This document shows positions 12,874 to 24,323 of a stretch of DNA of 64,000 nt, in pieces. Position 1 is the first letter of the stretch. Every line of letters starts with the position of its first letter. The position numbers were made by a program, and so were the translations under genes. The notes under the pieces were generated by a model. That model did not search any database, was not told the origin of the DNA, and worked only from the letters and a program-made list of their open reading frames with translations. Origin of the DNA: Candidatus Magasanikbacteria bacterium CG11_big_fil_rev_8_21_14_0_20_39_34 (lineage in GTDB: Bacteria; Patescibacteriota; Patescibacteriia; Magasanikbacterales; UBA922); NCBI GenBank assembly GCA_002787355.1, contig PCWN01000008.1, positions 69,873 through 133,872 of the forward strand, written 5' to 3'.

Positions 12874-13344
12874 ATGGGACACATACATGAAAAAGTAGAC
12901 TTTACCTCCGAAGTGTTTGTATTCTTTGAAGATAAAGTTCTCTTGCGAAAACACGATAAGTATCATCTTTGGCTTGGAGCGGGTGGCCACATAGAACTCC
13001 ACGAAGATCCCAATCAAGCAGCCATTCGTGAAGTAAAGGAAGAAGTTGGATTAGATATCATACTGGTCAATCCAACACACACACCACTACTCTCTTTAGA
13101 GTATTCACAGGATCTTGTTCCTCCTTTTTTTATGAACCGACACAAGATTAACGATACGCACGAGCATGTTTGTCTTATATATGCAGGTATTACACATGAT
13201 GATACACTTACACTTTCTGAAACGGAAAAAAGTGAATCCTGTCAGTGGCTTACACGACAAGACGTTATAGAAAATACTGAAATTCAACCTCATATAAAAA
13301 AATATGTCCTCTACATGTTTGAGAAGCTATCACAGGCTCATTAG
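12874..13344 (+). CDS. NUDIX hydrolase
   Basis: Nudix box GGHIELHEDPNQAAIREVKEEVGL (GX5EX7REUXEEXGU). Confidence 0.8.
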   Translation: MGHIHEKVDFTSEVFVFFEDKVLLRKHDKYHLWLGAGGHIELHEDPNQAAIREVKEEVGLDIILVNPTHTPLLSLEYSQDLVPPFFMNRHKINDTHEHVCLIYAGITHDDTLTLSETEKSESCQWLTRQDVIENTEIQPHIKKYVLYMFEKLSQAH

Positions 13345-13383: not shown

Positions 13384-16300
13384 TTGAAACAAAAAAGGAT
13401 TCCTGTTACTATACTGATACTTCTCAAAACTATGGTGGACGAATACGCACAAAATCTTCTTCTGGATACCGATAGATCTCTCATTGAGATCTATATGGAT
13501 CTCCAAACCCATTTTGAAAAAAAATATGGGGAGAATACGGTCGTTCTTATTGAAATTGGCTCTTTTTTTGAGGTGTATGGAGTAGACAATGATACTGAAA
13601 AACTTGGAAAACCCAAAGAAATAGCAGAAATTTTAAACTTACAGCTCACCAGAAAAAACAAATCCATTGCACAAAACGATACCAAAAATCCTCTTCTGGC
13701 CGGATTTCCTGTTGCTACATTTGAGAGGTATATAAGCCGCCTCACACAAGAGAACAAATATACTATTGTTATCGTAAGACAGAAAGGAACTCCCCCACAT
13801 GTCTCACGATACATTGATAGAATCCTTTCACCAGGAATCAACTTCGATTATAATTTTGATCATAAGGATAATTTTTTAGTTTCCCTTTTAATTGAAAAAA
13901 GCAGCGATGTCTACTCCATTGGATATGCCGCCATTGATGTCACCACGGGAAAAACCTATCTTCAAGAACTTTACGGAAATAGAGAAGACAAAACCCTTGC
14001 ACTTGATGGAGTATTCCGTCTTCTCCAAGCAAATAGAACTTCAGAAATTCTCCTCACGAGGGCATCCGAAAATATAGATCTTCAAGCTGTTATTGAATAT
14101 TTAGAAATTTCTGAAAATAATATCAAGACTCCACAAAGAAGACTGGATAACGCATACCAAAATGAACTCTTCAAGAAAACATATATTATCAATACATTCC
14201 TTTCACCAGTAGAATTTTTAGATCTTGAAAAAAGCCCTCTAACCAGCGAAGCACTTGCCATTCTTCTTGAATTTATCATTGAACATGACTTTTCCATCAT
14301 TGAAAAATTGAAAAAACCTACACATCTCTCCAACAGTAACTATCTTTTTTTAGGAAACAACCCTTTGGAACAGCTCAATGTGATTAGTCGTGATGCCCAT
14401 GAGATGACACTCCTGAAACTTTTAGATCATACCACGACCAGTATTGGAAAACGCATGTTCCGCGAAAGACTTCTCAATCCTATTCTCCAAAAGGATGAGT
14501 TGGAACAAAGGTATGAACTCAGTGAGAGCTTCCGTGATATATATCCAAAAATTGAAAAAGAACTCCAGAGTGTTTATGATCTTGAACGTATTCTCCGAAG
14601 AATACATCTCAAAAGACTTCATCCTTTTGAAATCAACTTTTTGTATGATTCCCTTCTTGCAACTCATACTATTTATAACCATATAGAAAACACAAAAATT
14701 TCTGATTTATTGAGTTGTTCAACAAATGAAAAAAATAATCTACAAAATTTCATCCATATCCTGGAAAAGAATTTTGTATTTGAAAATTGTTCAAAAGTAA
14801 ATTTTCATCAAATTGAAGGATCACTTTTTCACGAAGGATATGATAAAGAATTAGATTTTCTCAACGAAGAAAAAAGAAAACGAGAAGAAAAAATGGAAGC
14901 CATTCGGGAAAAAATTCTTGAGGTTTTAGAAAAACAAACAGGTAAATATGAAGGCGACTTTGTAAGCATAAAACAGCTGGATAAAGAAGGTCACCATATT
15001 ACTCTTACCAAAAGTCGCTACGCCCTCATAGAAGAACCTCTCAAAGAAACATACCTTTCTTTGAATGGGAAAGTCTATGCTTTTTCTGATTTCAACCTAA
15101 AAATTCAAACCACAAATGTAAAAATGACCGCCCCAATTATTGATGAAATTTCTGAAGGTATTGTACTGCTCCAGACAAAGATAAATGCTCTCACGAAAGA
15201 ACTTTTTTTGAAAGAATTGGAAAAAATTTCTGAAACACACACAGAACTTTTAGAAAATATTATTGAGTTTCTGTCAAAAATTGATGTCGCCGTGAGTAAT
15301 ATTCGGGCTTCTATCAAGTTTCGTCTTACTCGACCGGAGATTTTAGACATAGAAGAAGATGAAACATTTTTAGAGATACAGGCACTTCGACATCCTCTTG
15401 TCCAAGAAAGAGAGGAAAACGGCATCTATGTACCCAATGATATTATCCTTGGAGAAAAGAAATATCAAAAACACCAATCTCTTTTGAGTGAGATATCTGA
15501 TTCAAATGTTTTTGGCGTTCTTCTTTATGGAATCAACTCAAGTGGGAAGTCATCCCTTATGAAAAGTATTGGAATTGCCATTTTACTTGCACAATCCGGT
15601 ATGTTTGTTCCAGCAGAATCCATGCGTTTTGGAATTTTTAGAGAAATTTTTACTCGAATTGTCTCTCGTGATAATTTTGAAAAAGGTCTTTCTTCGTTTG
15701 CTGTCGAAATCATGGAACTCAAAAACATATTTAATAGATGCACTCCCAAAAGCCTTATTTTAGGAGATGAAATTAGTCATGGAACGGAGACCCTTTCTGC
15801 AATATCTATTATATGTGCTACCATTTTAAAGCTCCTAGAAAAAAAATCTCTTTTCATTTTCACTACCCATTTGCACCAATTAGGCAATATTCAACACATA
15901 CAGAAACTTAATTCCGTTGTTTCTGTGCATCTTTCCGTAAATTACGACGAGAAAGAAGACAAACTTATATTTGATAGAACACTTCAAGCTGGAAGTGGAA
16001 GCAGCATATACGGGTTGGAATTTGCACAATCACTTCATATAGATCCCCTCTTTTTGCAAAAAGCCCTCCAACTCAGGAAAGAACTTGCCGGACAAGCCGA
16101 TGAGCTTCAACTTTTGACCCAACAAAAAACCAGTAAATACCATAAAAATCTTTTTATCACCTCCTGTGCCGTCTGCCAAAATCCCGTTGACGAGACCCAT
16201 CACATAAAACCACAAAAACTTTCTGATAAAGACGGAAATATAGAACATTTTCATAAAGATCATAAATATAATCTCCTCCCATTATGTGAAGGTTGCCATA

Positions 16301-16389
16301 ATAGAGCTCATAATGGTAGACTTATTATTAAAGGATTTATCATGACAAGCAATGGACTTGAGCTACAGTTTGAGGAAGTAAAATCCTGA
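13384..16389 (+). CDS. mutS: MutS-family DNA mismatch repair protein with C-terminal HNH endonuclease domain (MutS7-like architecture)
   Basis: N-terminal mismatch-binding domain with GSFFEVYG (cf. GDFYELF) and …PLLAGFPVATFERYISRL…IVRQKG…RILSPG. ABC ATPase with Walker A GINSSGKSSLMKS, signature SSFAVEIME and DEISHGTET. The C-terminus CAVCQNPVDETHHIKPQ…NLLPLCEGCHNRAHNG is an HNH motif. The start may be 13432 (MVDEY). Confidence 0.8.
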   Translation: MKQKRIPVTILILLKTMVDEYAQNLLLDTDRSLIEIYMDLQTHFEKKYGENTVVLIEIGSFFEVYGVDNDTEKLGKPKEIAEILNLQLTRKNKSIAQNDTKNPLLAGFPVATFERYISRLTQENKYTIVIVRQKGTPPHVSRYIDRILSPGINFDYNFDHKDNFLVSLLIEKSSDVYSIGYAAIDVTTGKTYLQELYGNREDKTLALDGVFRLLQANRTSEILLTRASENIDLQAVIEYLEISENNIKTPQRRLDNAYQNELFKKTYIINTFLSPVEFLDLEKSPLTSEALAILLEFIIEHDFSIIEKLKKPTHLSNSNYLFLGNNPLEQLNVISRDAHEMTLLKLLDHTTTSIGKRMFRERLLNPILQKDELEQRYELSESFRDIYPKIEKELQSVYDLERILRRIHLKRLHPFEINFLYDSLLATHTIYNHIENTKISDLLSCSTNEKNNLQNFIHILEKNFVFENCSKVNFHQIEGSLFHEGYDKELDFLNEEKRKREEKMEAIREKILEVLEKQTGKYEGDFVSIKQLDKEGHHITLTKSRYALIEEPLKETYLSLNGKVYAFSDFNLKIQTTNVKMTAPIIDEISEGIVLLQTKINALTKELFLKELEKISETHTELLENIIEFLSKIDVAVSNIRASIKFRLTRPEILDIEEDETFLEIQALRHPLVQEREENGIYVPNDIILGEKKYQKHQSLLSEISDSNVFGVLLYGINSSGKSSLMKSIGIAILLAQSGMFVPAESMRFGIFREIFTRIVSRDNFEKGLSSFAVEIMELKNIFNRCTPKSLILGDEISHGTETLSAISIICATILKLLEKKSLFIFTTHLHQLGNIQHIQKLNSVVSVHLSVNYDEKEDKLIFDRTLQAGSGSSIYGLEFAQSLHIDPLFLQKALQLRKELAGQADELQLLTQQKTSKYHKNLFITSCAVCQNPVDETHHIKPQKLSDKDGNIEHFHKDHKYNLLPLCEGCHNRAHNGRLIIKGFIMTSNGLELQFEEVKS

Positions 16390-16404: not shown

Positions 16405-16734
16405 TTGGTATACCAAAAAAGGCACTCTCCCAATGTAAAGTCTATGAAAAAAAGTTCTCTTCAAAAATACTGGAAAATATTTATCCATACTTATGTATTT
16501 TTTTTAGTACTCTTCTTTTTCTATAACTTAGTTACAGACTCCGGAGCGATACATTGGATTTATGCATTTCAACAAAAACATTTTCATGTAATTTCTATCA
16601 AAATAACCATTACCTTTGCACTTTTCAGTTATATACTCATACCGATCCTTCCATTTATACTCATTAGATTTTTTTTAGAAAAAAAATTTGATGTCTATCT
16701 TGGTCCTAAAAAGAAAGTATATGCAACCAAATAA
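16405..16734 (+). CDS. hypothetical small membrane protein
   Basis: Two predicted hydrophobic helices. Overlaps the cfa start by 14 nt. No recognisable domain. Confidence 0.35.
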   Translation: MVYQKRHSPNVKSMKKSSLQKYWKIFIHTYVFFLVLFFFYNLVTDSGAIHWIYAFQQKHFHVISIKITITFALFSYILIPILPFILIRFFLEKKFDVYLGPKKKVYATK

Positions 16735-20260: not shown

Positions 20261-21679
20261 TTATAGTAGTGCTTCAACATTGACCCCATAGGTAAAATCA
20301 ATTTCCTCAATAGAGTGAAGAATATCTGAAGCCTGTTTTTTTAAGTCATTATATTGTTCTTCTGTTTTTGCTTCAAATTTTATGGTCATATACGGACCAT
20401 TTTGTGATGCACGAAAGATAAGCATCTCATTTTCTGTATCCATTCGTATCCCATCAATTTCAGTATATTTTGCATTTGGATAGAGATCCTTTACCTTTTT
20501 TGCTATTTGTTCTTTTACTACCTGAAATTTTATATCATCAGGACAACCAACTTTTATCTCTGGACTAGAAATATATTGTGGAAGCTCAGCAACAACTTCC
20601 TTCAACGTCATTTCTTTTCTCCCCAAGTATTCAAGAAGCCTCAACGCACCAATAGCGGTATCATCATGTCCAAAAAAATTATCAACAAAGAAAAAATGTC
20701 CACTTAACTCTCCACCAAAAATAGCACCAATCTCTTTTATTTTTGCTTTTATAAACGAGTGCCCAGTCATCCACATAACAGACTGTCCACCAGAAGCCTG
20801 TATGACATCTCCTACTTGTTTTGAGCATAACACATTATAAACAATTTTTGCTCCCGGAAGATACTCTAAAATATCCTTTGCATAAATAGATACTAATGTA
20901 TCATTCCACATGAGATTCCCCTCATGATCCACTACCCCCAGTCTATCTCCATCGCAGTCAAAAGAAAATCCAAGGTCAGCTCCTTCCTGTTTTACACGTG
21001 CCGCCAAACGCTCCTGAACTTCACGCTCCGTAGGATCTGGAGTACCAACCGGGAAGTTTCCATCCGGAGTAGTATTTTGTTCTATTACCTCACAGCCAAG
21101 TCTTCGAAGAATCTCTGGAATAATGGGTCCAGCATTCCCCGCAGAAGCATCCACCACAACCTTCATGGGTTTAATATTTTTAGCTTTTTTTATTACATCT
21201 TCTGCATACATCTCAAATACATCCTTTTCAATTACTTTCCCCTTTTCCTTCAAAGACATATACTCACCACTCCAAACCAGTTGTTTAAACTCATGAATCT
21301 CCTCTGTGACCATAGTCTCAGAATACCCGGTCCCAAATTTAAACCCATTATACTCTTTTGGATTGTGTGAAGCTGTAATCATGACCATTCCACGAGTTCG
21401 AAAATAATATTGGGCAAAATAGGCAACTTGACTCATCGTCATTCCTATATCATAGACAGTAATTCCTGAATCAGTGAGCCCATTTACAAATGCATCTCGA
21501 AAAGCAGGACTGGACAATCTACAGTCTCGTCCTACAACACAGTCATAGATACGTCTCCTCAACAACCAAGTAGCATATGCCCGAGCTAAAATCTCTACAT
21601 TTTCCTCCGTAAAGTCCTCTCCCACAACACCACGCATGTCATATCCTCGAAATGCATGCTCCGGTATGATTTTTTTCAT
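20261..21679 (-). CDS. phosphoglucomutase/phosphomannomutase family protein
   Basis: Active-site Ser motif ITASHNPKEYNGFKF, metal-binding DCDGDR and the C-terminal domain. Confidence 0.9.
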   Translation of the reverse strand: MKKIIPEHAFRGYDMRGVVGEDFTEENVEILARAYATWLLRRRIYDCVVGRDCRLSSPAFRDAFVNGLTDSGITVYDIGMTMSQVAYFAQYYFRTRGMVMITASHNPKEYNGFKFGTGYSETMVTEEIHEFKQLVWSGEYMSLKEKGKVIEKDVFEMYAEDVIKKAKNIKPMKVVVDASAGNAGPIIPEILRRLGCEVIEQNTTPDGNFPVGTPDPTEREVQERLAARVKQEGADLGFSFDCDGDRLGVVDHEGNLMWNDTLVSIYAKDILEYLPGAKIVYNVLCSKQVGDVIQASGGQSVMWMTGHSFIKAKIKEIGAIFGGELSGHFFFVDNFFGHDDTAIGALRLLEYLGRKEMTLKEVVAELPQYISSPEIKVGCPDDIKFQVVKEQIAKKVKDLYPNAKYTEIDGIRMDTENEMLIFRASQNGPYMTIKFEAKTEEQYNDLKKQASDILHSIEEIDFTYGVNVEALL

Positions 21680-21719
21680 AAAAGTGGTTAAATTAAACTA
21701 ATTTAATGAAAATTTTTCT

Positions 21720-21749
21720 TTGACAAAAAGCCTGCGCGTAGTATATAAT
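21720..21749 (+). promoter_or_regulatory. sigma-70-type promoter upstream of clpC
   Basis: TTGACA (21720-21725), an 18-nt spacer, then TATAAT (21744-21749). Alternatively a 16-nt spacer to TATATA. Confidence 0.5.
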
Positions 21750-21806
21750 AGACTCGTAAAAAAAACAATTTGTGCAAAAAATTTGTCCAAAAATAGCTGA
21801 AAAATT

Positions 21807-24323
21807 ATGTCAGAGCACAACAAACTATTAGACAATTTCTCCGCCCATCTCAAAAATACCATTGCTCGCGCTATCACCATAGCAGAACAGATGAATCATG
21901 CCTGTGTTGAGCCATCTCACTTGCTCCTCTCACTTTCCCAAGAAAAAGGATCTATTGGGTATGAAATTCTTGCAAAATTTCAGATAGACTCGGACAAACT
22001 CATTGATATTTTTTCATCTAAACTTGATTTCCCCATTACCCCACAAAATCTCTCAACAGACCAAAAAACAACCACACTTCCCAACCTTGATGAAAAATCA
22101 AAGGAAGTCCTTGAAAAAGCCATGGTCCTCTCCTACCGCGAATCGCACACCTACGTAGGGACTGAACACCTTCTTTTTGGGATCATATCCATCCAAGAAC
22201 CAAAGCTTCAAGCAATTTTTAAAGACCTCAAGATAACAAAAAAAACACTTAAAGACCAAGTGAATTTTATTATCCAAAGTACTAGTGCCTTTCCCACAAT
22301 AGATGATATTCATGGAATTATGGATGATATCCAAGAACTGAACCAAAATGGAGCACAAGGTCATCACTTGTTTGAACGCCCCACACAAAAATCTTCTTCC
22401 TCTGCCATAAATCAATACAGTACAATTCTGACCAACAAGGATCACCAAAAGGATATAGATCCAGTTATTGGTCGTGATAAAGAAATTGAACGTATTATTA
22501 GTATCCTGTGCAGAAGAAATAAAAACAACCCCATACTCCTTGGTGAGGCTGGTGTTGGAAAAACCGCAATAGTGGAAGGACTTTCAAAGAAAATTGCAGA
22601 AGGGAGTGTACCCGATATCCTTAAAAATAAAAAAGTTCTCTCTCTTGACCTTACCCTTTTGATTGCAGGAACTATCTACCGAGGAGAGTTTGAAGATAGA
22701 CTCAAACAAATTATCCAAGAAGTATCAGAAAACTCAAACTATATACTTTTTATTGATGAAATTCATAATATAATTGGTGCGGGATCAAATCAAGGAACCA
22801 TGGATGCCGCCAATATACTCAAGCCAGCACTTGCACGTGGAAAACTCCGATGCATTGGTGCAACAACCTTTGATGAATATGAAAAATATATTGCGTCTGA
22901 CCCAGCACTCGATAGACGTTTTCAAGCAATTCATGTAAAAGAGCCTTCTGCTGAAGAAACAAAGTCTATACTCAATGGTGTAAAAAGATATTACGAAAAT
23001 TTTCATGAGTGCCATATTGATACAGATGCTATCAATGCCGCCGTGGATCTCAGTATCCGTTATGTACACGATAATTATCTTCCAGATAAGGCCATAGATC
23101 TATTAGATGAAGCCTGTGCTTATAGAAGATCACAAAAAAAACTTTCTAAAATACAAAGAAGACAATGGGATTTACTACAAAAAGAAGAATCTCTTGAAAG
23201 AGAAAAAGAAAGAGCCATACTCAAAGAAAACTTCAAGAAAGCCACAGAAATAAAAAATGAAATTGAAAAAATAAAAAATGAAATGAAGAAGCTATCAAAA
23301 CAAAAAAAGCTTGGTCCCAAAATTCAAATTTCAAAAAATGACATAGCCTACGTTCTATCACAAAAGACAAAGATAGACATAAATGTACTTCTCCAGTCAC
23401 AGTGGGAGAATCTTCAACGGCTCAAGAAAGAACTCTCCAAACATATCCTGGGACAAAACCAAGTAATCGAAAATATTGTTGAAACACTTATCCAATCAAA
23501 TTTGGGGATGAAAAATCCAGAAAAACCACAAGCGTCTCTCCTTTTTGCCGGCCCAAGTGGCGTTGGAAAAACATACCTTTCCCAACTCCTTGCAGAACAC
23601 CTCTATCACGATCGTTCCGCCCTTATTCGCTTGAATATGAGTGAGTTTTCTGAATCGCATGGAGTATCAAAACTTCTTGGTTCACCTGCTGGATATGTGG
23701 GATTTAAAGGACGAAATCATTTTCTCGAACAAGTGAAACGGAGGCCCCATTCTATTCTTTTATTTGATGAATTTGATAAAGCCCATGCGGATGTCCGCAA
23801 ACTTCTGCTACAAATTCTTGACGAAGGAACATTGACCGATGCGCAAGGGAAAAAAATCACTTTTAAAAATGCGATTATAATTATTACAACGAGTGTCGGT
23901 GCACAACTTTTTGAAACTTCCAGTATTGGTTTTGATAACAAAGAACTAGGAACAAAACAATACTCATCAAAAATTCAATCGGAAACCAATGATAAATTAA
24001 AAGAATTTTTTGGTGCTGAGCTTTTGGGACGCATTGATAAGATCTGCTTGTTTCATCCACTCGATGCACAAACGATAAAAGGCATTGTTGAGATAAAACT
24101 TGCTGAAATCAACAAAAGACTTCAGGAAAAATTCAAATCAAAAGTAAAAGCAGACAAGCAAGCACTTTCAGCTATTGTTCATGATGCCTACAACAAACAT
24201 ATGGGGGCAAGAAATATTGATAATGTATTACAAAATATTCTTGCACAGACTTTAAAATTTCCACTCGATCAAGAAAAAATTCTTACCCTCACAAAAAAAT
24301 CGGACCACTATGAGCTTATCTGA
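21807..24323 (+). CDS. clpC: Clp/Hsp100 AAA+ chaperone (ATP-binding subunit ClpC-like)
   Basis: Clp N-domain repeats. Two AAA modules (GEAGVGKTAIVEGL; GPSGVGKTYLSQ). A short coiled-coil middle domain. Sensor and RxxR motifs present. Confidence 0.9.
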   Translation: MSEHNKLLDNFSAHLKNTIARAITIAEQMNHACVEPSHLLLSLSQEKGSIGYEILAKFQIDSDKLIDIFSSKLDFPITPQNLSTDQKTTTLPNLDEKSKEVLEKAMVLSYRESHTYVGTEHLLFGIISIQEPKLQAIFKDLKITKKTLKDQVNFIIQSTSAFPTIDDIHGIMDDIQELNQNGAQGHHLFERPTQKSSSSAINQYSTILTNKDHQKDIDPVIGRDKEIERIISILCRRNKNNPILLGEAGVGKTAIVEGLSKKIAEGSVPDILKNKKVLSLDLTLLIAGTIYRGEFEDRLKQIIQEVSENSNYILFIDEIHNIIGAGSNQGTMDAANILKPALARGKLRCIGATTFDEYEKYIASDPALDRRFQAIHVKEPSAEETKSILNGVKRYYENFHECHIDTDAINAAVDLSIRYVHDNYLPDKAIDLLDEACAYRRSQKKLSKIQRRQWDLLQKEESLEREKERAILKENFKKATEIKNEIEKIKNEMKKLSKQKKLGPKIQISKNDIAYVLSQKTKIDINVLLQSQWENLQRLKKELSKHILGQNQVIENIVETLIQSNLGMKNPEKPQASLLFAGPSGVGKTYLSQLLAEHLYHDRSALIRLNMSEFSESHGVSKLLGSPAGYVGFKGRNHFLEQVKRRPHSILLFDEFDKAHADVRKLLLQILDEGTLTDAQGKKITFKNAIIIITTSVGAQLFETSSIGFDNKELGTKQYSSKIQSETNDKLKEFFGAELLGRIDKICLFHPLDAQTIKGIVEIKLAEINKRLQEKFKSKVKADKQALSAIVHDAYNKHMGARNIDNVLQNILAQTLKFPLDQEKILTLTKKSDHYELI

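Follow-up and report, generated by a model that had tools for sequence, protein, structure and literature searches.

A MutS7 Family Gene Encoding a Predicted Mismatch-Recognition Protein with a C-Terminal HNH Domain in Candidatus Magasanikbacteria

Introduction

A gene from a metagenome-assembled genome of Candidatus Magasanikbacteria (CPR/Patescibacteria) in which a MutS body is joined to a C-terminal HNH domain raises the question of whether one polypeptide could both recognise a mismatch and cut the DNA near it. MutS and MutL are often missing from CPR bacteria (PMC6064768, PMC8406219), and such a one-polypeptide sensor-nuclease, if real, would be an economical means of replication fidelity for a reduced CPR genome. 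The gene was analysed within a stretch of 64 kb, hereafter the window. The reading favoured here is that of a chromosomal, vertically inherited CPR MutS7 gene whose product would act by a MutL-independent recognise-and-nick mechanism, and this statement, taken as a whole, is given a probability of about 0.6.

Gene Structure and Start Site

The analysis showed an uninterrupted open reading frame on the + strand (13384..16389), of 1001 aa when counted from a TTG codon, in agreement with the preliminary description of this locus; an internal ATG was favoured as the start.

13432..16389, + strand: MutS7 gene, stop codon included (985 aa); start probably ATG 13432; longest open reading frame from TTG 13384

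The ATG at 13432 is the start called in three independent assemblies (ENA, Logan, JGI), and the N-termini of most homologs align to the Met at this position, while the TTG at 13384 overlaps a -35-like hexamer. The true start is probably the ATG and not the TTG. The product is 100% identical to a 985-aa protein annotated in Candidatus Magasanikbacteria (P0001) and was recovered identically on 14 contigs (ENA, Logan, JGI, NCBI). Since, in addition, the HNH tail is present in 77 of the 77 bacterial relatives extracted, an assembly artefact was ruled out as the origin of the fusion.

Domain Composition of the MutS Body

The preliminary description had attributed to the protein a mismatch-binding domain, connector and clamp regions and an ABC ATPase. 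Each was recovered, and all the motif strings that it quoted, including LILGDEISHGTE and CAVCQNPVDETHHIKPQ...LCEGCHNRAHNG, were located at verified coordinates.

13519..13839, + strand: MutS domain I (mismatch binding); Pfam MutS_I 36.7 bits versus a cut-off of 20.6, 5e-9
13558-13581, + strand: GSFFEVYG, holding Phe-x-Glu, with Phe at 13564-13566 and Glu at 13570-13572
13870..14277, + strand: connector (domain II equivalent); Pfam MutS_II 22.9 bits, under the cut-off of 25; alpha/beta in the AF2 model
14365..15297, + strand: core/lever (domain III); Pfam MutS_III ~93.1 bits, 4e-26
~14941-15132, + strand: clamp (domain IV equivalent), nested in domain III; in the model, a beta-rich insert between two long helices
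15520..16086, + strand: ABC ATPase (domain V); Pfam MutS_V 138.7 bits, 3e-40
15529-15555, + strand: Walker A GINSSGKSS; coordinates verified, motif residues invariant
15754-15789, + strand: Walker B LILGDEISHGTE; coordinates verified, motif residues invariant
15862-15876, + strand: TTHLH of the ABC ATPase; coordinates verified, motif residues invariant

The matches to MutS_I, MutS_III and MutS_V were all above the Pfam cut-offs, that to MutS_III spanning 311 residues versus a profile of 194 positions, and no match to Pfam MutS_IV was found in the protein. Structural superposition placed the AF2 model on the whole of E. coli MutS, connector region included, with a TM score of 0.83 normalised to the target. 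Since both the connector and the clamp of the model superpose on E. coli MutS, the non-detection of domains II and IV by Pfam points to sequence divergence rather than to missing domains. The Phe-x-Glu motif aligns with F36/E38 in the GDFYE of E. coli MutS, and its Phe and Glu are invariant in 70 sequences. Taken together with the model, these results showed that no domain of the MutS body (I to V) is missing and that all residues for mismatch recognition and ATP hydrolysis are present.

Assignment to the MutS7 Family

The label "MutS1-type" given to the protein at first proved to be wrong. Its scores were below the cut-offs of both NCBIfam MutS1 equivalogs (NF003810, 366 versus 480 bits; TIGR01070, 285.8 versus 641.7 bits), it shares only 24% identity with E. 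coli MutS and it carries an HNH nuclease domain, and MutS1 identity was rejected on these grounds. Identity as MutS2 was also rejected, because domain I is present, no Smr domain is matched by Pfam in the protein, and the NCBIfam mutS2 model scored 115.5 versus 400 bits, matching residues 608-918 (the ATPase region) only.

The MutS7 family was defined by Ogata 2011. According to this definition, as summarised in PMC3166940, its members have a domain I with Phe-x-Glu, domains III and V and a C-terminal HNH, group with epsilonproteobacterial and giant-virus MutS and not with MutS1, and, in contrast to MutS1, have domains II and IV undetected. The present protein has domain I, domains III and V, the C-terminal HNH and a corresponding phylogenetic placement. 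It is 48-52% identical to Campylobacterota MutS7 over residues 1-982 and 33-36% identical, end to end, to giant-virus MutS7, and the top structural match among viral proteins bears the name MutS subfamily 7 (E 1e-58; TM 0.71 normalised to the query). The MutS7-like architecture that had been suggested was thus upheld by the Campylobacterota identity, by the neighbour-joining sister placement described below and by this structural match, and the gene almost certainly encodes a member of the MutS7 family.

Comparison with the Campylobacterota proteins of Sulfurospirillum arcachonense DSM 9755 (L129) and Hydrogenimonas thermophila (P0111) revealed a similar length (~980 aa), the same domain order (I-II-III/IV-V-linker-HNH-hairpin) and identical catalytic and mismatch-binding residues, although the HNH uses Cys as its fourth zinc ligand in CPR and His in Campylobacterota, the host phylum differs and the gene neighbourhoods are unrelated. 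The homology of Mimiviridae and giant-virus MutS7 (e.g., Tetraselmis virus 1, A0A2P0VN50) also includes the HNH tail. Giant-virus MutS7 and octocoral mtMutS share with the CPR protein a Pfam profile of I, III, V and HNH in which II and IV mostly escape detection (PMC8438181), but they are viral or organellar genes, some with large insertions, unlike the CPR gene. With MutS1 (E. coli and Thermus MutS, acting with MutL and MutH), the CPR protein shares the five-domain fold, Phe-x-Glu, Walker A and B and presumably the ATP-driven clamp cycle; in place of the MutS1 C-terminal region it has the linker and HNH, and its nuclease is in cis, whereas that of MutS1 is supplied by MutL or MutH. A C-terminal nuclease is likewise fused to a MutS ATPase in MutS2 (Smr) and in plant-type MSH1 (GIY-YIG), but both folds are unrelated to HNH, and MutS2 is without the domain I that the CPR protein has. 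MSH1 is a separate clade (bioRxiv 10.1101/2024.07.17.603841).

The C-Terminal HNH Domain

Downstream of the ATPase, three further features were delimited.

16087..16164, + strand: linker between ATPase and HNH; pLDDT 63-65 in the full-length model
16165..16329, + strand: HNH nuclease domain of the beta-beta-alpha-metal type; CxxC...CxxC zinc site; holds CAVCQNPVDETHHIKPQ...LCEGCHNRAHNG
16321..16386, + strand: conserved C-terminal beta-hairpin after the HNH core; two high-pLDDT strands in the tail model

The alignment with E. coli MutS stops just upstream of the linker, in which no beta-clamp-binding motif was seen, and no strand-discrimination device was evident in the protein. The tail had been described as a clear HNH nuclease motif. 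Structural comparison supported it as a genuine HNH domain, but the Pfam profile did not, since PF01844 scored 18.3 bits on this sequence, under the cut-off of 21.4. Such a comparison was needed because a profile-based search of PDB sequences with the tail returned only the IscB HNH and the Cap5 HNH-SAVED, at non-significant values (E ~1). The features of HNH/His-Me fingers are present, namely the beta-beta-alpha-metal fold, the catalytic His, the metal-binding Asn and His and the CxxC...CxxC zinc site (in TTG numbering, C928, C931, H939, H940, N963, C968, C971, H972, and H976); in the hairpin, G984 and G991 are invariant and M987 and T988 nearly so. As modelled, the HNH is flexibly tethered and zinc-stabilised, with its catalytic set intact, and is predicted to have nuclease activity.

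Predicted Function

Self-contained recognise-and-nick repair is the best hypothesis for the function of the MutS7 protein, and MutL-independent mismatch repair by nicking is, on balance, slightly favoured as a prediction. As in MutS1, the protein would dimerise via its ATPase domains and the dimer would clamp the DNA, with the conserved Phe wedged into the mismatch and the Glu of Phe-x-Glu contacting the mismatched base. ADP would then be swapped for ATP, and the ATP-bound protein would license its own HNH to nick one strand near the mismatch, with no recruitment of MutL (and MutH). A helicase and an exonuclease, or strand-displacement resynthesis, could start from this nick. No biochemistry of any MutS7, including nicking, is reported in the literature searched; the mechanism is experimentally tractable, since cultured Campylobacterota possess close orthologs. 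Mismatch recognition and cleavage without MutS or MutL are also combined in a single polypeptide by NucS/EndoMS, which has no ATPase and makes double-strand breaks, and which resembles the CPR protein by function only, its fold being unrelated.

Because a MutS7 dimer bears two HNH domains, the sequence is equally compatible with nicking and with the cutting of both strands. The two domains might cut both strands at or near the mismatch, like NucS/EndoMS, or destroy mismatched recombination intermediates, like MutS2-Smr in anti-recombination, followed by repair of the break through recombination or by rejection of foreign DNA; this is considered rather unlikely as the function of the protein. 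Double-strand cleavage or heteroduplex rejection would be consistent with two HNH domains held on a flexible linker (the pLDDT of the model drops at residues 880-900) and with McrA, TagI, VcaM4I, and Cap5, all double-strand cutters, as structural neighbours of the tail, but other close neighbours, Gme HNH and T5 SciA, are nickases. Either activity would also fit the presence of RecG in the window and the existence of MutS-nuclease fusions with roles other than mismatch repair, such as MutS2-Smr. However, anti-recombination proteins of the MutS2 type are without domain I, whereas here domain I is present with an invariant Phe-x-Glu, as in MutS proteins dedicated to mismatch repair, and the increase in transitions after natural loss in an octocoral (bioRxiv 10.1101/2021.09.08.459357) fits the correction of replication errors.

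Genomic Context

The absence of mutL from the window, already reported in the preliminary description, was confirmed both by a Pfam scan of the ten largest open reading frames and by a six-frame tblastn search with E. coli MutL. The search extended to ~9-10 kb of flank on each side of the window and again gave no mutL, which brings the stretch examined to ~83 kb; the contig measures at least 506 kb. In addition, no MutL-like sequence lies within 5 kb of ~80 bacterial MutS7 homologs. These results argue against an ordinary MutS partnered with a MutL encoded elsewhere, in which the HNH would be an accessory, MutH-like nicking activity within the canonical MutS-MutL pathway. The ~83 kb searched are a part of the contig, the CPR lineages Gracilibacteria and Absconditabacteria possess both MutS and MutL (PMC8406219), and the model retains the connector, the domain to which MutL binds in MutS1. 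Nevertheless, such a partnership is judged quite unlikely, as the protein failed the MutS1 equivalog cut-offs, the HNH sits where the MutS1 C-terminal region would be, and MutS7, for which MutL-free action has been proposed (PMC3166940), occurs in giant viruses and octocoral mitochondria.

A defence or selfish element, either an ABC-ATPase with HNH that attacks the DNA of phages or plasmids or an inserted HNH homing endonuclease that takes no part in repair, is very improbable, for although ATPase-nuclease pairs are common in defence and HNH is frequent in mobile elements (PMC5714182), a PADLOC scan gave sub-significant P-loop matches only, upon which the defence-system reading was rejected, the gene is single-copy and set among housekeeping genes (PheST, RseP, HtpX, ClpB), its phylogeny tracks taxonomy within CPR and Campylobacterota, and the HNH is at an identical position in all 77 bacterial members, not sporadic.

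The MutS7 gene is also adjacent to a NUDIX gene.

12874..13344: NUDIX gene; Pfam 9.5e-14

This gene is real, but the functional link once suggested for it was rejected on neighbourhood comparison, no homolog of this NUDIX being found within 5 kb of MutS7 in ~20 other CPR loci and ~63 Campylobacterota loci. RecG is likewise encoded within the 64-kb window.

Phylogeny and Distribution

The phylogenetic analysis was carried out by neighbour joining (a distance method) on the MutS core without the HNH, with a single MutS1 outgroup and with octocoral sequences left out. The CPR sequences formed one clade (bootstrap 100), sister to Campylobacterota (bootstrap 99), and the tree followed taxonomy inside both groups. 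The backbone bootstraps for the deep branching order were 6-54, and therefore no claim is made on the donor or the direction of transfer. A broader proposal is put forward tentatively and is, as a whole, rather doubtful: MutS7 might be the sole mismatch-repair system in Magasanikbacteria and related CPR (Uhrbacteria, Kerfeldbacteria, Nomurabacteria), as a one-gene substitute for MutS1-MutL-MutH fitting genomes of ~1 Mb; the close sister relationship to Campylobacterota, with its ~50% cross-phylum identity, might record an ancient inter-phylum transfer; and bacteria generally, not epsilonproteobacteria specifically, might have been the source for giant viruses and octocoral mitochondria.

The MutS7 family is already known, being cited as an oddity common to Mimiviridae, octocoral mitochondria and epsilonproteobacteria, and its occurrence in CPR extends it; literature searches for HNH-MutS in CPR/Patescibacteria turned up nothing relevant. 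In metagenomes, MutS7 serves as a giant-virus marker gene (PMC6163669). Given the well-supported CPR clade and further bacterial lineages (L170, L171), metagenomic calls of the kind "MutS7 = Mimiviridae" need a check against a bacterial outgroup, and where viruses and octocorals obtained the gene is due for re-examination with far wider bacterial sampling. The view that this architecture is limited to a few scattered lineages was an understatement, and MutS7 is far commoner among bacteria than the literature states. Relatives occur in at least 567 GTDB species genomes and on 351 viral contigs, full-length alignments were obtained for more than 150 clusters at 50% identity, and two of the representatives at 38-41% identity are bacterial by contig context.

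The MutS7 gene and its start codon

The open reading frame at 13384..16389 on the forward strand is present in the window as the preliminary description had claimed, and the protein it encodes matches, with 100% identity, a 985-amino-acid protein of a Candidatus Magasanikbacteria MAG that is annotated as "DNA mismatch repair protein" and lies on contigs of up to 506 kb. Its start, however, is more likely the ATG at 13432, which is used in that 985-amino-acid protein, in the ENA, Logan and JGI gene calls and in most homolog N-termini. The TTG at 13384 falls in a promoter-like site (13384-13412; TTGAAA, 17 nt, TG-TACTAT), where it opens the -35-like hexamer; the site ends 20 nt upstream of the ATG, and this overlap fits the shorter gene model. 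No clear Shine-Dalgarno sequence was found upstream of either start. The gene was taken as 13432..16389; residue numbers follow the 1,001-amino-acid frame from TTG unless stated.

Family assignment

The encoded protein is a MutS7. Its counterparts in Sulfurospirillum (including S. arcachonense DSM 9755), Sulfurimonas, Sulfuricurvum, Nitratiruptor, Hydrogenimonas, Sulfurovum and Thiovulum are 48-52% identical to it over residues 1-982; they make up the epsilonproteobacterial group with which MutS7 was defined and rooted (PMC3166940, PMC6163669). Proteins encoded on MAG contigs of giant viruses (351 viral loci) were 33-36% identical to it from end to end, tail included. The best viral matches of the structure model include the "MutS subfamily 7" protein of Tetraselmis virus 1 (E 1.4e-58; TM 0.71, query-normalised), compared with E 8.8e-12 and a TM of only 0.28 for the MutS8 of that virus.

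MutS1 identity was ruled out by scores below the cut-offs of the NCBIfam models (366 bits versus 480 for NF003810; 286 versus 642 for TIGR01070) and by 24% identity to E. coli MutS; that alignment runs to residue 885 of the 985-amino-acid protein, where it stops just short of the linker and HNH. MutS2 identity was likewise rejected, as domain I is present, no Smr domain was found and the mutS2 model matched the ATPase region only. The preliminary description was right in its MutS plus HNH architecture and MutS7 family, but wrong in the label "MutS1-type"; the repair function is putative.

Domain architecture and structure prediction

The Pfam scan matched the following MutS domains, one of them under its cut-off, and gave no match to MutS_IV:

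MutS_I, residues 46-152, above cut-off
MutS_II, residues 163-298, slightly under cut-off
MutS_III, residues 328-638, above cut-off
MutS_V, residues 713-901, above cut-off

The GSFFE motif aligned with E. coli GDFYE, F61 and E63 corresponding to E. coli F36 and E38. The Phe and Glu of Phe-x-Glu, Walker A (GINSSGKSS), Walker B (DE) and the TTHLH histidine were invariant in a 70-sequence alignment, and motif coordinates were verified against the window sequence.

A confident full-length AlphaFold2 model built on this alignment (pLDDT 86.2, pTM 0.78) superposed on nearly all of mismatch-bound E. coli MutS (1wb9_A; E 3.7e-50, about 900 columns), with a TM of 0.83 normalised to the 788-residue target. 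The near-complete fold is predicted to be shared with MutS1, and the C-terminal region of MutS1 is replaced by the linker (pLDDT 63-65 around model residues 880-900, lower confidence) and the HNH. Since the model superposes on almost the whole of E. coli MutS, the connector and clamp are predicted to be present, the clamp as a beta-rich segment that separates two long helices of the lever (approximately 14941-15132). The literature contrasts MutS7 with MutS1 by a "lack" of domains II and IV (PMC3166940, PMC8438181); judging from the model, this reported lack would be sequence divergence with the structure retained.

The HNH tail

The full-length Pfam scan gave HNH_2 at 16.8 bits (E 0.006) and no match to PF01844, so that the HNH identity, on which the reading had been said beforehand to stand or fall, had to be tested. 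Scanned alone, the 101-residue tail reached 21.6 bits for HNH_2 (cut-off 21) and 18.3 bits for PF01844, under its cut-off of 21.4. Among 27 diverse family tails, 23 matched HNH_2 (best 1e-6), 22 matched PF01844 (best 4e-6) and 26 matched DUF968 over the same Cys/His region. C928, C931, H939, H940, N963, C968, H972 and H976 were invariant in the 70-sequence alignment, and a separate model of the tail was confident (pLDDT 87.5). The HNH assignment holds, and the protein is a complete MutS machine with mismatch-recognition and ATPase residues intact, plus an intact HNH.

ETHHIKPQ resembles the catalytic strand of Cas9, DHIVPQ. By this comparison H940 would likely act as the general base, and N963 together with H972/H976 would bind the metal. 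As fourth zinc ligand (residue 971, 16294-16296), every CPR member of the family alignment has Cys (CxxCH) and every Campylobacterota member His (CxxHH), a clean lineage-specific substitution.

Proposed mechanism

A MutS7 dimer would bind the mismatch through Phe-x-Glu, ATP would drive a conformational switch, and the HNH would incise in cis, dispensing with MutL and MutH. Such a "self-contained" model was proposed for mtMutS (PMC3166940). Functional evidence in the family, all from octocorals, is indirect: low mtDNA substitution rates, and more transitions in the one octocoral that lacks the gene (bioRxiv 10.1101/2021.09.08.459357). Incision could be a nick or, since a dimer would carry two HNH domains, a cut through both strands; as a whole, the rival reading of mismatch-triggered double-strand cleavage or heteroduplex rejection is unlikely.

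Cooperation with an unseen MutL is less probable still. The window holds a single MutS gene, and tblastn with E. coli MutL found no mutL in the window, as previously described, in a further 9-10 kb or so on each side (together about 83 kb, on a contig that spans at least 506 kb) or in any of the other loci compared. Other CPR groups rarely have canonical mutS/mutL, which occur in 13 of 859 Microgenomates MAGs (PMC6064768) and in no Saccharibacteria (PMC8406219). That the gene is a defence or selfish element is very improbable, PADLOC having returned no meaningful defence-system match.

Genomic context

The window is an ordinary CPR chromosome, with G+C of 32-43% throughout and genes for tmRNA with SmpB, PheST, RseP, LemA, HtpX, ClpB, RecG, TopA, DnaK and the CCA-adding enzyme. 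The smpB gene (861-1313) lies immediately 5' of a full-length tmRNA gene (1380-1775, 117.9 bits), an ordinary trans-translation pair. The adjacent NUDIX gene (12874..13344) is real, but the functional link suggested for it is unsupported: among the loci compared it adjoins MutS7 in this genome only, and no other CPR or Campylobacterota locus compared has a homolog of it within 5 kb of MutS7. Four neighbourhoods viewed in detail were all different:

Neighbourhood 1, ribosomal operon
Neighbourhood 2, RecQ-MsrAB with TsaD and DnaE
Neighbourhood 3, surface protein
Neighbourhood 4, DoxX with helicase

Five or six further CPR loci, with Magasanikbacteria or Nomurabacteria labels, have homologs of phosphoglucomutase (PGM) and ClpB within 5 kb of MutS7, a synteny remnant that fits a stable chromosomal gene and argues for its vertical inheritance within the group; the recurrence was seen in loci L091, L095, L096, L098 and L099 against 20261-24323 of the window. 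Between MutS7 and a cyclopropane-fatty-acid-synthase gene, whose start it overlaps, lies a small hydrophobic ORF (16405-16734; 109 amino acids, 96 in assembly calls); no Pfam match is recorded for it, and the other loci compared have no homolog of it next to MutS7.

Distribution and phylogeny

As late as 2024, MutS7 was listed for octocorals, nucleocytoviruses and epsilonproteobacteria only (bioRxiv 10.1101/2024.07.17.603841; PMC6163669), and the preliminary description spoke of a few scattered lineages. This rarity proved wrong: an exhaustive HMMER search returned at least 150 clusters (50% identity level), with alignments that for nearly all of them run close to full length, and at least 567 GTDB species genomes encode a relative. 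About 17 of the best 80 of these genomes are CPR (Magasanikbacteria, Uhrbacteria, Nomurabacteria, Kerfeldbacteria and "Patescibacteria group"). The gene adds CPR to an already known family, known with its hypothesised mechanism since 2009-2011; in the literature searched, no link between MutS7 and CPR was found, nor any mention of the CPR clade, of the bacterial breadth or of domains II and IV being structurally present.

A neighbour-joining tree of the MutS core without the HNH (820 columns, 112 sequences, E. coli MutS1 root, 100 bootstraps) recovered the CPR sequences (bootstrap 100) and Campylobacterota (97) as clades and as sisters (99). Giant-virus and metagenomic sequences fell outside this pair with backbone bootstraps of 6-54, and for this reason no direction of transfer is claimed. 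Three loci from GTDB MAG records titled "uncultured Gammaproteobacteria bacterium" (L089, L092, L100), counted among the 17 or so CPR genomes above, encode MutS7 proteins that share 56-62% identity with the one from Magasanikbacteria. L089 and L100, which were placed in the tree, fall within the CPR clade (bootstrap 100), and the Gammaproteobacteria labels of all three look wrong.

Two relatives of 38-41% identity, for which Pfam MutS_I, III and V are recorded (L170, 8001-10970; L171, 8001-10895, GCA_022729735.1), lie on ordinary bacterial contigs, one beside RecA/SecA/LigA and the other beside SecG/RRF/futalosine-pathway genes, and thus at least one further bacterial lineage has the family. 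Six relative proteins of 1270-1411 amino acids (P0133, P0173, P0215, P0227, P0235, P0257) align with the query piecewise, in two or three blocks; their insertions may be inteins, which have been reported in nucleocytovirus MutS genes (bioRxiv 10.1101/2024.07.17.603841).
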